The notes under the pieces: generated by a model
The model's input: the letters and a program-made list of their open reading frames with translations, nothing else
Database searches by the model: none
What the model was told of the DNA's origin: nothing
Made by a program: the position numbers and the translations under genes
Assembly: GCF_024298765.1 (NCBI RefSeq)
Contig: NZ_CP101210.1
Reading direction: 5' to 3' (one strand)
DNA: 64,000 bases
From: Escherichia coli
GTDB taxonomy: Bacteria > Pseudomonadota > Gammaproteobacteria > Enterobacterales > Enterobacteriaceae
Part shown: positions 11,685 to 15,594 of the stretch, piece after piece
Numbering within the stretch: the stretch's first letter is position 1
Layout of the letters: every line of letters begins with the position of its first letter

Positions 11685-13661
11685 ATGTCTGACGACATGT
11701 CTATGGGTTTGCCTTCGTCAGCGGGCGAACACGGTGTACTACGCTCCATGCAGGAGGTTGCAATGAGCTCCCAGGAAGCCAGCAAGATGCTGCGTACTTA
11801 CAATATTGCCTGGTGGGGCAATAACTACTATGACGTTAACGAGCTGGGCCACATTAGCGTGTGCCCGGACCCGGACGTCCCGGAAGCTCGCGTCGATCTC
11901 GCGCAGTTAGTGAAAACTCGTGAAGCACAGGGCCAGCGTCTGCCTGCACTGTTCTGTTTCCCACAGATCCTGCAGCACCGTTTGCGTTCTATTAACGCCG
12001 CGTTCAAACGTGCGCGGGAATCCTACGGCTATAACGGCGATTACTTCCTCGTTTATCCGATCAAAGTTAACCAGCACCGCCGCGTGATTGAGTCCCTGAT
12101 TCATTCGGGCGAACCGCTGGGCCTGGAAGCCGGTTCCAAAGCGGAGTTGATGGCGGTGCTGGCACATGCTGGCATGACCCGTAGCGTCATCGTCTGCAAC
12201 GGTTATAAGGACCGCGAATATATCCGCCTGGCATTAATTGGCGAGAAGATGGGCCACAAGGTCTATCTGGTCATTGAGAAGATGTCAGAAATTGCCATTG
12301 TGCTGGATGAAGCAGAACGTCTGAATGTCGTTCCTCGTCTGGGCGTGCGTGCACGTCTGGCTTCGCAGGGCTCGGGTAAATGGCAGTCCTCCGGCGGGGA
12401 AAAATCGAAGTTCGGCCTGGCGGCGACTCAGGTACTGCAACTGGTTGAAACCCTGCGTGAAGCCGGGCGTCTCGACAGCCTGCAACTGCTGCACTTCCAC
12501 CTCGGTTCGCAGATGGCTAATATTCGCGATATCGCGACAGGCGTTCGTGAATCCGCGCGTTTCTATGTGGAACTGCACAAGCTGGGCGTCAATATTCAGT
12601 GCTTCGACGTTGGCGGCGGTCTGGGCGTGGACTATGAAGGCACCCGTTCGCAGTCCGACTGTTCGGTGAACTACGGCCTCAATGAATACGCCAACAACAT
12701 CATCTGGGCGATTGGTGATGCGTGTGAAGAAAATGGTCTGCCACATCCGACGGTAATCACCGAGTCGGGTCGTGCGGTGACTGCGCATCACACCGTGCTG
12801 GTGTCGAATATCATCGGCGTGGAACGTAACGAATACACGGTGCCGACCGCGCCTGCAGAAGACGCACCGCGCGCCCTGCAAAGCATGTGGGAAACCTGGC
12901 AGGAGATGCACGAACCGGGAACTCGTCGTTCTCTGCGTGAATGGTTACACGACAGCCAGATGGATCTGCACGATATTCATATCGGCTACTCTTCCGGCAC
13001 CTTTAGCCTGCAAGAACGTGCATGGGCAGAACAACTCTATCTGAGCATGTGCCATGAAGTGCAGAAGCAACTGGATCCGCAAAACCGTGCGCATCGTCCG
13101 ATTATCGACGAGCTGCAGGAACGTATGGCTGACAAAATGTACGTCAACTTCTCGCTGTTCCAGTCGATGCCGGACGCATGGGGGATCGACCAGTTGTTCC
13201 CGGTTCTGCCGCTGGAAGGGTTGGATCAAGTGCCGGAGCGCCGCGCTGTGCTGCTGGATATTACCTGTGATTCTGACGGTGCTATTGATCACTACATCGA
13301 TGGTGATGGTATTGCCACGACAATGCCAATGCCGGAGTACGATCCAGAGAATCCGCCGATGCTCGGTTTCTTCATGGTCGGCGCATATCAGGAGATCCTC
13401 GGCAACATGCACAACCTGTTCGGTGATACCGAAGCGGTTGACGTGTTCGTCTTCCCTGACGGCAGCGTAGAAGTAGAACTGTCTGACGAAGGCGATACCG
13501 TGGCGGATATGCTGCAATATGTACAGCTCGATCCGAAAACGTTGTTAACCCAGTTCCGTGATCAAGTGAAGAAAACCGATCTTGATGCTGAACTGCAACA
13601 ACAGTTCCTTGAAGAGTTCGAGGCAGGTTTGTACGGTTATACCTATCTTGAAGATGAATAA
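11685..13661 (+). CDS. speA: Biosynthetic arginine decarboxylase SpeA (658 aa)
   Basis: ORF 11673..13661 trimmed to [19 protein letters not shown]. Confidence 0.95.
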
Positions 13662-13678
13662 TTAAGATTATTCCGCTG

Positions 13679-13720
13679 GCGGGTCGATTTATTTACGTAA
13701 ATCGGCCCGCTTTCTTTTTA
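13679..13720 (+). terminator. Rho-independent terminator after speA
   Basis: 13-bp stem gcgggtcgattta / taaatcggcccgc, loop tttacg, then tttcttttta. Confidence 0.6.
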
Positions 13721-13806
13721 TATATTCTTAAAAATAATTTAGCTGCTTTTCTTATTAAATAATCTCCCTACAATCGCTGCATTAATTAAATGCAGAGGGA
13801 ACGGTT

Positions 13807-14538
13807 ATGAAAAAAGGGAAAGTACGTAGCGCGTTGATAGCATTAGCCGTGCTGCTGGCCGGTTGTTCCAGTAATGCGCAGTATAATAGCAGTGCATCAG
13901 GCAATGTCGGCACCGCCTGGGGTGGGGATGTGCACTCAACGGTTCAGGGCGTATCTGCTGAGCGAGCTTGGCGCGATCCGGCAGAGATGATCGTTATTAG
14001 TTATTCGACGACTGTTCCTTCGGGCTACGACCGCGTTTATAGCATTCGTATTAACGAACTTGAATATGCTATTCGCGATGGTAATTTTAATTCTCTACCT
14101 ATTACGCGGGTTTATGATTCGTCAAATAATGAACCACGCTATATTGTCCATGCCAGAGTAGGAATGAATTATCAATTATATGTCCGCAATTACAGTCGTA
14201 ACACCAACTACGAGATCGTTGCTACGGTTGATGGCCTGGATGTGCTGAACGGCAAGCAAGGTTCGCTGAATAACAACGGCTATATTGTGAATGCCGGAGA
14301 TTCGTTAGCGATTAAAGGATTCCGCAAAGATAAACATACCGAAGCGGCTTTTCAGTTCGCCAACGTTGCTGATTCCTACGCAGCCAATTCGGCGCAAGGC
14401 GATGTGCGTAATACCGGTGTAATCGGCTTTGCCGCCTTTGAATTACAAGGCCCGGCGCAAAACGCGCTGCCGCCGTGCTCTGGACAAGCCTTTCCGGCAG
14501 ATAACAATGGCTATGCGCCGCCACCGTGTCGGAAATAG
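13807..14538 (+). CDS. Putative outer-membrane lipoprotein of unknown function (243 aa); candidate accessory gene
   Basis: ORF begins MKKGKVRSALIALAVLLAGCSS: a signal peptide with lipobox LLAG|C and Ser at +2. Mature part is Asn/Ser/Tyr/Gly-rich with two C-terminal Cys. Central portion looks AT-rich. Its own SD (gagggaa) and flanking terminators. Confidence 0.7.
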   Translation: MKKGKVRSALIALAVLLAGCSSNAQYNSSASGNVGTAWGGDVHSTVQGVSAERAWRDPAEMIVISYSTTVPSGYDRVYSIRINELEYAIRDGNFNSLPITRVYDSSNNEPRYIVHARVGMNYQLYVRNYSRNTNYEIVATVDGLDVLNGKQGSLNNNGYIVNAGDSLAIKGFRKDKHTEAAFQFANVADSYAANSAQGDVRNTGVIGFAAFELQGPAQNALPPCSGQAFPADNNGYAPPPCRK

Positions 14539-14603
14539 CAACCTCGCTTGATGCCTCGCCCATTTAAGGCGATAATTAGCACAAAATTGTGTTTCGCAAA
14601 TCC

Positions 14604-14646
14604 AACCCTTCCTCGTCGGGCCTAACGACGCGGAAGGGTTTTTTTA
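14604..14646 (+). terminator. Rho-independent terminator between the lipoprotein ORF and speB
   Basis: Hairpin cccttcctcgtcg...cgacgcggaaggg followed by ttttttta. Confidence 0.55.
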
Positions 14647-14673
14647 TATCGACTTTGTAATAGGAGTCCATCC

Positions 14674-15594
14674 ATGAGCACCTTAGGTCATCAATACGAT
14701 AACTCACTGGTTTCCAACGCCTTTGGTTTTTTACGCCTGCCGATGAACTTCCAGCCGTATGACAGCGATGCTGACTGGGTGATTACTGGCGTGCCGTTCG
14801 ATATGGCCACTTCTGGCCGTGCGGGGGGGCGCCACGGTCCGGCAGCGATCCGTCAGGTTTCGACGAATCTGGCCTGGGAACACAACCGCTTCCCGTGGAA
14901 TTTCGACATGCGTGAGCGCCTGAACGTGGTGGACTGCGGTGATCTGGTATATGCCTTCGGCGATGCCCGTGAGATGAGCGAGAAGCTGCAGGCACACGCC
15001 GAGAAGCTGCTGGCTGCCGGTAAGCGTATGCTCTCCTTCGGTGGTGACCACTTTGTTACGCTGCCGCTGCTGCGTGCTCATGCGAAGCATTTCGGCAAAA
15101 TGGCGCTGGTACACTTTGACGCCCACACCGATACCTATGCGAACGGTTGTGAATTTGACCACGGCACCATGTTCTATACCGCGCCGAAAGAAGGTCTGAT
15201 CGACCCGAATCATTCCGTGCAGATTGGTATTCGTACCGAGTTTGATAAAGACAACGGCTTTACCGTGCTGGACGCCTGCCAGGTGAACGATCGCAGCGTG
15301 GATGACGTTATCGCCCAGGTGAAACAGATTGTGGGTGATATGCCGGTTTACCTGACCTTTGATATCGATTGCCTGGACCCTGCATTTGCACCAGGCACCG
15401 GTACGCCGGTAATTGGCGGCCTGACCTCCGATCGCGCCATTAAACTGGTACGCGGCCTGAAAGATCTCAACATCGTTGGGATGGACGTAGTGGAGGTGGC
15501 TCCGGCATACGATCAGTCGGAAATCACCGCTCTGGCAGCGGCGACGCTGGCGCTGGAGATGCTGTATATTCAGGCGGCGAAAAAGGGCGAGTAA
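14674..15594 (+). CDS. speB: Agmatinase SpeB (306 aa)
   Basis: ORF 14674..15594; translation [23 protein letters not shown]... matches recalled SpeB. Confidence 0.95.

Follow-up and report, generated by a model that had tools for sequence, protein, structure and literature searches.

Operator, RNA hairpin or part of an ordinary promoter: a palindrome ahead of the lipoprotein gene between speA and speB in Escherichia

Many genomes of Escherichia coli carry a gene for a lipoprotein between speA and speB, and a short palindrome lies just ahead of its start codon. Is this palindrome the operator of a dimeric regulator, or an RNA hairpin that sequesters the Shine-Dalgarno (SD) sequence, as the original prediction had proposed, or is it an incidental feature of a promoter and leader? 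The window (the whole stretch of 64,000 nt that was analysed, and to which all positions refer unless stated otherwise) reads ...ataatctccctacaatcgCTGCATTaattaAATGCAGagggaacggttATG around the palindrome, and the features of the locus are listed in Table 1. The two 7-bp arms (CTGCATT and AATGCAG) pair perfectly around the 5-nt centre AATTA, and as a DNA dyad the sequence matches at eight of nine symmetric pairs over 19 bp. The predicted near-perfect palindrome with 7-bp arms and an AT-rich centre is therefore present, with an exact span of 13777–13795 inside the interval first given for it (13765–13806). It also adjoins the ribosome-binding site as described, G13795 being both its last base and the first base of the SD sequence GAGG (13795–13798), but the distance from its end to the ATG at 13807 is 11 nt and not about 15 nt. 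The same interval also contains TCCCT (13765–13769), which is complementary to AGGGA (13796–13800).

Table 1. Positions of genes, predicted signals and repeats around the palindrome
Feature	Position	Strand	Basis or remark
speA, biosynthetic arginine decarboxylase, upstream gene	11685..13661	+	ORF; speA annotation in matching E. coli records
speA intrinsic terminator, 15-bp stem (13678-13711) then T-run TTTCTTTTT	13678..13719	+	terminator scan
Weak -35-like hexamer TTTTCT (candidate)	13747..13752	+	16 nt upstream of the -10 box; poor match to TTGACA
TCCCT, complementary to Shine-Dalgarno AGGGA	13765..13769	+	possible anti-SD only in transcripts started upstream; pairs with 13796-13800 in the minimum free energy (MFE) fold
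Predicted -10 hexamer TACAAT	13769..13774	+	T, A and final T invariant in 13/13 loci, 8 genera
Palindrome CTGCATT-AATTA-AATGCAG, ctgcattaattaaatgcag	13777..13795		window sequence
Predicted transcription start A13781, +/-2 nt	13781	+	deduced from spacing, 7 nt after the -10 box; within the left arm
Shine-Dalgarno GAGGGA	13795..13800	+	GGA core in all orthologs; GAGG ends 8 nt before ATG
Lipoprotein gene, 243 aa, lipobox LLAG-C20, Ser at +2, uncharacterised family	13807..14538	+	ORF
speB promoter TTGATG-17-GATAAT	14548..14576	+	promoter scan; start 14583 implied by published data
speB, agmatinase, downstream gene	14674..15594	+	ORF

The lipoprotein gene had been described as inserted, a polarity that the comparison of genomes reverses. 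It is carried by 3550 of 5426 complete E. coli genomes and missing in 1876, and the order speA-lipoprotein-speB is kept in at least eight enterobacterial genera (other Escherichia, three Citrobacter species, two Kluyvera species, Klebsiella, Enterobacter, Phytobacter, Intestinirhabdus and Entomohabitans); in Salmonella, the gene likewise lies downstream of speA. Because this gene order is common to so many genera, the lipoprotein gene is not an insertion, and it is K-12 that has lost it. K-12 and B strains are without the gene, so that speA there runs straight into a diverged speB promoter region, and in K-12 the sequence that directly follows speA is homologous to the speB promoter but has diverged from it. 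The palindrome was also considered as an indel junction, and this was rejected since it lies about 120 nt within the segment that is missing from K-12. Further neighbours of the locus are loiP and tktA.

Several variants of this arrangement were seen. In K-12/B-type strains, the speA terminator is missing together with the lipoprotein gene (window 13659–14600 compared with 1438–1510 of L001, from the K-12-type strain J53), and the speB promoter region left in J53 is about 75% identical by eye, far below the usual similarity of E. coli alleles. So strong a divergence suggests that the presence or absence of the lipoprotein gene is an old polymorphism and not a recent deletion. In those Salmonella enterica genomes that have the lipoprotein gene (L088/L089, 3386–4186), genes for a GntR/FCD-family regulator and a mannitol-dehydrogenase-family protein follow the lipoprotein gene, in the place that speB occupies in E. 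coli. In Entomohabitans teleogrylli (L016, 940–2500), about 1.5 kb of extra DNA separates speA from the lipoprotein gene, and an ACAG-A-rich-GGGA stretch is still present ahead of the ATG.

The intergenic sequence upstream of the lipoprotein gene (about 150 nt) was aligned for 13 loci from eight genera. Invariant in all 13 are TAnnnT at 13769–13774, T13747 and T13748 about 22 nt further upstream, the SD core GGA, and the ATG; the stem of the speA terminator is also retained in the other genera, with both of its sides changing together. The first T, the A and the final T are the least variable positions of the sigma-70 -10 hexamer, and since it is these that are invariant, the box is read as the -10 element of the lipoprotein gene. 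TAnnnT is kept in five more orthologs (TACAAT in Salmonella, TACACT in Klebsiella, TAGTCT in Kluyvera, and TAGAAT and TAAACT in two metagenomic relatives), and in all orthologs the distance from the box to the ATG is 29–40 nt. The lipoprotein gene would thus have a promoter of its own, its -10 box and start site both being predictions, and the palindrome spans about -4 to +15 of this predicted promoter. The 7-nt spacing used to place the start also leads from the GATAAT box of speB (14571–14576) to 14583, which is the start published for strain EDL933, where the Cappable-seq data in the supplement of PMC10469882 give a speB leader of 91 nt. An alternative -10 box further upstream, TATATT (13721–13726), was discarded: its second position is G in two genera, and its -35 element would fall within the terminator stem. 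Consensus sequences for sigma-E, sigma-32 and sigma-54 were looked for by eye around the palindrome and were not found.

Two genomes have insertion sequences within this short region. In E. coli 20KM2222, an IS1A at window position 13771–13779, between the -10 box and the palindrome, is flanked by a 9-bp target duplication, CAATCGCTG, and cuts the lipoprotein gene off from its predicted promoter. In E. coli isolate 68, which has the IAI39-type allele (see later), an IS110-family element follows 13798, inside the SD sequence and right after the palindrome.

Palindromes of this quality are common in the window. Counting inverted repeats with perfectly paired 7-bp arms and loops of 3–8 nt gave 63, where first-order Markov simulations lead to an expectation of 28 ± 5. 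When the arm pattern itself was searched for with up to two mismatches, there was one match in the window against 0.51 expected, and at least one match occurred in 39 of 100 shuffles. Taken alone, the palindrome is not beyond chance and is no rarer than expected. It is not flagged by the terminator scan as an intrinsic terminator or attenuator, and no T-run follows 13795; an exact search for the 19-mer in viral contigs gave no match.

Within E. coli, the sequence from 13767 to 13805 is identical in 3290 of 3556 complete genomes (93%), and 263 more (about 7%) have a single mismatch. In all four of the latter that were sampled, including IAI39, the mismatch is G13792A, which turns the central C-G pair into an uncompensated C·A and abolishes the core hairpin (-6.5 kcal/mol before the change, 0 after it). 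The sampled G13792A genomes also carry T13765C in the UCCCU stretch, and the two changes weaken the fold from -26 to -16 kcal/mol. Position 13765 is thus C in the IAI39 lineage, and it is G in the sequence L005, a variant that is absent from the complete E. coli genomes searched for it. Other members of the genus with an identical palindrome are E. whittamii, Escherichia sp. E1V33 and a genome labelled E. fergusonii, and it differs by C13777T in Escherichia sp. MOD1-EC7003 and by C13793T in strain SCPM-O-B-8794. Two of the three known natural variants change a pair to G·U and one to C·A, and this proportion of wobble-compatible changes matches the roughly 50% expected from random transitions. 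In Escherichia sp. E1V33, two substitutions break the outer helix, again without compensation.

The distribution of variable sites among six Escherichia sequences places the palindrome in a broader conserved block: 2 of its 19 positions vary, compared with 0 of the 6 positions of the -10 box, 2 of the 14 that run from the SD sequence to the ATG, 14 of 48 in the upstream spacer, and 25–46% at third codon positions. The constraint is on the entire promoter-proximal block and not on the dyad in particular, and the palindrome is dispensable in a sizeable E. coli lineage.

Beyond Escherichia the palindrome disappears. Conservation across orthologous loci was what the original prediction had staked itself on, and the ortholog alignments largely tell against it, the palindrome being kept within Escherichia and absent outside the genus. 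When the E. coli structure was imposed on the alignment, the Escherichia rows were 95.6% paired and the other genera (Citrobacter, Klebsiella, Kluyvera, Enterobacter, Phytobacter and Intestinirhabdus) 43.3%, the same as the 42–51% of controls slid by 1–3 columns. RNAalifold found no consensus structure in the ortholog alignment (0 pairs). In 12 orthologs from outside E. coli, the excess of folding over a null that keeps segment composition was marginal (Stouffer -1.8), and there was no excess pairing of the SD sequence (Stouffer -0.18). Related motifs do occur in other genera on either side of this region, where yGCyG follows the -10 box and CAG with an A-run precedes GGA. Clearest among the inverted repeats that orthologs have here is the dyad of Salmonella, CCCCCT-N11-AGGGGG, which differs from that of E. 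coli and lies over the SD sequence, and Phytobacter has an anti-SD:SD complementarity of its own, UCCCUG:CAGGGA. That several orthologs have short inverted repeats of their own here is no surprise, as such repeats are expected to be frequent in 35–40 nt. An apparent compensatory change, AUAAUC:GGUUAU in E. coli to AUAUCC:GGAUAU in Citrobacter FP75, failed formal counts and is broken in Escherichia sp. E1V33.

Folding of the RNA around the start codon gave a divided answer to the proposal of an SD-sequestering hairpin. The MFE fold of 13755–13830 (76 nt) stacks the inner hairpin on UCCCU:AGGGA and AUAAUC:GGUUAU and has an energy of -16 kcal/mol (z = -2.25). For about 13757–13812 (56 nt), the energy is again -16 kcal/mol, with z = -3.9 and none of 300 shuffles equalling it, and z = -3.84 when each segment was shuffled separately so as to keep its composition; the locus was picked for its palindrome, so these z-scores are ascertained and not independent. 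The MFE helix does cover the SD sequence and the AU of the AUG in silico, by way of its extension, while the inner hairpin reaches the SD sequence by a single nucleotide (G13795). The probability that the region from SD to AUG is paired, P(SD..AUG), is 0.79–0.81 in the extended fold, against 0.55 ± 0.11 under the null. All this holds for RNA that contains both arms. The predicted start lies within the left arm, so the gene's own mRNA would be without the left arm and UCCCU and could not form the hairpin, which would then be limited to RNA started further upstream, such as read-through transcripts from speA. An upstream start or such read-through would put the whole structure into RNA. Accordingly, P(SD..AUG) is 0.79 for an RNA of the read-through type (13722–13830) but 0.34 for RNA from the predicted start at 13781, which is open (-1.4 kcal/mol). 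The predicted leaders of 13 orthologs are slightly less folded than their shuffles (mean z = +0.39), and low structure is what is expected of translation initiation regions. So the helix over the SD sequence stood up in computation, its conservation across genera did not, and its presence in the gene's own transcript is improbable if the predicted start is right. A search of 13500–14800 with Rfam covariance models returned only chance-level matches (E > 2) to eukaryotic or unrelated families.

The difference between the two kinds of RNA recalls the fold-back inhibition of IS10 and IS50, in which the element's own transcript begins downstream of the first arm and the second arm is at the ribosome-binding site, so that only read-through RNA hides the SD sequence. 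The predicted arm geometry at the lipoprotein gene is the same, in silico. Both arms and UCCCU would take part in a helix of about 18 bp, with interruptions, in which the SD sequence and the AUG are hidden, RNA from speA read-through or an upstream promoter would be silenced, own transcripts would stay open and be translated, and the palindrome would insulate lipoprotein synthesis from speA transcription. The strength of the extended fold against both nulls and the contrast in SD pairing between the two RNAs argue for this, as does the persistence of the pairing (0.72–0.82, via shifted registers) in diverged Escherichia lineages and in the IAI39 variant, and the complementarities of Salmonella (CCCCCU:AGGGGG) and Phytobacter can be counted on the same side. 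However, the speA terminator, with its 15-bp stem and T-run, is strong and little read-through is to be expected; the 12 orthologs from outside E. coli are without excess SD pairing and only marginally folded; in other genera the E. coli structure is at chance level; and the fold is weakened in 7% of E. coli and has lost its outer helix in E1V33. Moreover, a U-rich promoter region pairs readily with an A/G-rich ribosome-binding site without any selection. The setting also differs from that of IS10 and IS50: the gene here is chromosomal, encodes a lipoprotein and not a transposase and follows a strong terminator, the structure is not conserved in orthologs, and the read-through is hypothetical. 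Fold-back inhibition is unlikely on this balance, and that the Escherichia gene might be a promoter-dependent translational switch, with protection from outside transcription of the IS10/IS50 kind operating in an ordinary chromosomal gene, appears more unlikely still. If it were true, it would provide a tidy chromosomal example of a gene insulated from upstream read-through, of interest to researchers on translation initiation, and would open no new question. There is also some likeness to RNA thermometers (fourU, ROSE) and translational operators, in that a hairpin beside the SD sequence extends in silico via UCCCU:AGGGA; unlike in those, transcription is predicted to start downstream of the left half, and the structure has no match in Rfam, shows no covariation and is not conserved outside Escherichia.

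The second proposal, an operator for a dimeric regulator, concerns the DNA. A helix-turn-helix dimer bound to the 19-bp dyad (-4 to +15) could block open-complex formation or promoter escape. Overlap with the start is a usual position for repressor operators, and here a dyad with eight of nine symmetric positions lies over the predicted start and beside the conserved -10 box. As a near-perfect dyad of about 19 bp whose centre is a few bases past the predicted +1, it resembles lac O1 and operators of the TetR type. Also in its favour, 3290 of 3556 E. coli genomes have an identical sequence, as do other Escherichia species, and an operator specific to this lineage would account for the absence of the palindrome from other genera. 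On the other hand, no regulator gene adjoins the locus in E. coli, leaving no candidate regulator, and the 64-kb window holds no second site with up to two mismatches; the palindrome differs from lac O1 and TetR-type operators in being without a cognate regulator and a regulon-wide motif, and would be a candidate operator. The natural variants fall at dyad positions 1, 16 and 17, one of them a mid-arm change that is fixed in 7% of genomes, and chance alone should produce several dyads this good in 64 kb. What stood of this proposal is the dyad and its place over the predicted start, and an operator here is to be regarded as doubtful. Neither this proposal nor that of the hairpin was positively supported by the analysis.

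The motifs of two known regulators, ArcA and NsrR, were compared with the site, and neither fitted it. The site has TTAATTAAATG in common with the old 15-mer consensus for ArcA, GTTAATTAAATGTTA. Sites of phosphorylated ArcA consist of two direct repeats with a TGTTA core, 11 bp apart (PMC4173790). When aligned by hand, the repeat cores here are CATTA (3/5) and TGCAG (2/5), and the 10-bp repeats match at 5/10 and 4/10, so ArcA was rejected. NsrR half-sites stand in an 11-1-11 inverted arrangement, for which the half-sites here are spaced 2 bp too widely, the TGCA cores being 9 nt apart and not 7. Of the NsrR half-site consensus, AANATGCATTT (PMC8151001), the bottom strand matches the TGCATTT core alone and lacks the AANA part.

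The reading preferred here, with about an even chance of being right, is that the palindrome is part of the ordinary core promoter and short open leader of the lipoprotein gene, and that its dyad symmetry is incidental. An ordinary promoter and leader are most likely because the palindrome spans the predicted start, does not occur outside Escherichia, has lost its symmetry in about 7% of E. coli genomes and is no rarer than expected by chance. The gene would be transcribed from its own promoter just downstream of the speA terminator, with TACAAT as -10 box, a poor -35 element and a start near A13781. The left arm, CTGCATT, would overlap the G+C-rich stretch that separates the -10 box from the start, the centre would be the A/T-rich initially transcribed sequence, and the right arm would extend into the SD sequence. 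The A/U-rich leader would be about 26 nt long and would leave GAGG and the ATG accessible, and it would be by happenstance that these pieces of promoter and leader are complementary over 7 bp in Escherichia. This agrees with sigma-70/sigma-S promoters in the TAnnnT box, in the C that precedes it in E. coli (CTACAAT) combined with a poor -35 element, in the G+C-rich sequence that leads from the -10 box to the start, in the short unstructured A/U-rich leader and in the standard SD spacing. There is no difference in kind from such promoters, the 7-bp self-complementarity being a genus-specific extra. By the same reasoning, the palindrome probably has no function that depends on its dyad. Against the ordinary-promoter reading are the poor -35 element itself, the strong extended fold, the Salmonella dyad at the same place and the fact that the palindrome is unchanged in 93% of E. 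coli genomes, in E. whittamii and in the genome labelled E. fergusonii. At best, the palindrome would be a lineage-specific cis element before an uncharacterised outer-membrane lipoprotein, and it matters little.

A by-product of the analysis is the annotation of a polymorphic locus, with a fast-evolving ancestral lipoprotein gene that K-12 and B lack and that is predicted to be transcribed from its own promoter. Between genera, the lipoprotein is 53–76% identical, compared with 93–99% for SpeA and 88–99% for SpeB. The ORF begins with a typical lipoprotein signal, MKKGKVRSALIALAVLLAG-C, and in databases the gene is annotated as 'lipoprotein' or 'hypothetical'. Searches of Pfam and NCBIfam assigned the protein to no family, and a sequence search of the PDB found no relative. 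Its AlphaFold model (m615e3494f6aa) is all-beta with a pLDDT of 73, and Foldseek gave no significant match for it in the PDB. The O157 tags of the gene, ECs3813 and Z4282, were derived from neighbouring tags, and a text search of the literature for them returned no mention and no expression data. The unnamed family to which the lipoprotein belongs spans Proteobacteria, Myxococcota and Verrucomicrobiota, and its conserved features are an EIVATVDGLDVLNGK motif and a C-terminal LPPC...PPC.

Two further inverted repeats were observed near the gene. One is a strong, terminator-like hairpin at 14606–14645, CCCTTCCTCGTCG-GGCCTAA-CGACGCGGAAGGG followed by T7, which sits between the implied start of speB (14583) and its ATG (14674) and is also found in K-12; it may be the terminator of the lipoprotein gene, an attenuator in the speB leader, or both. 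The other is a second palindrome with 7-bp arms, GAATAAT-TAAG-ATTATTC, that lies across the speA stop codon (13656–13673) and is highly conserved among genera. At this palindrome, TAAGATTATTCCGC resembles, at 11 of 14 positions, what is presumably the RcsAB-box consensus.
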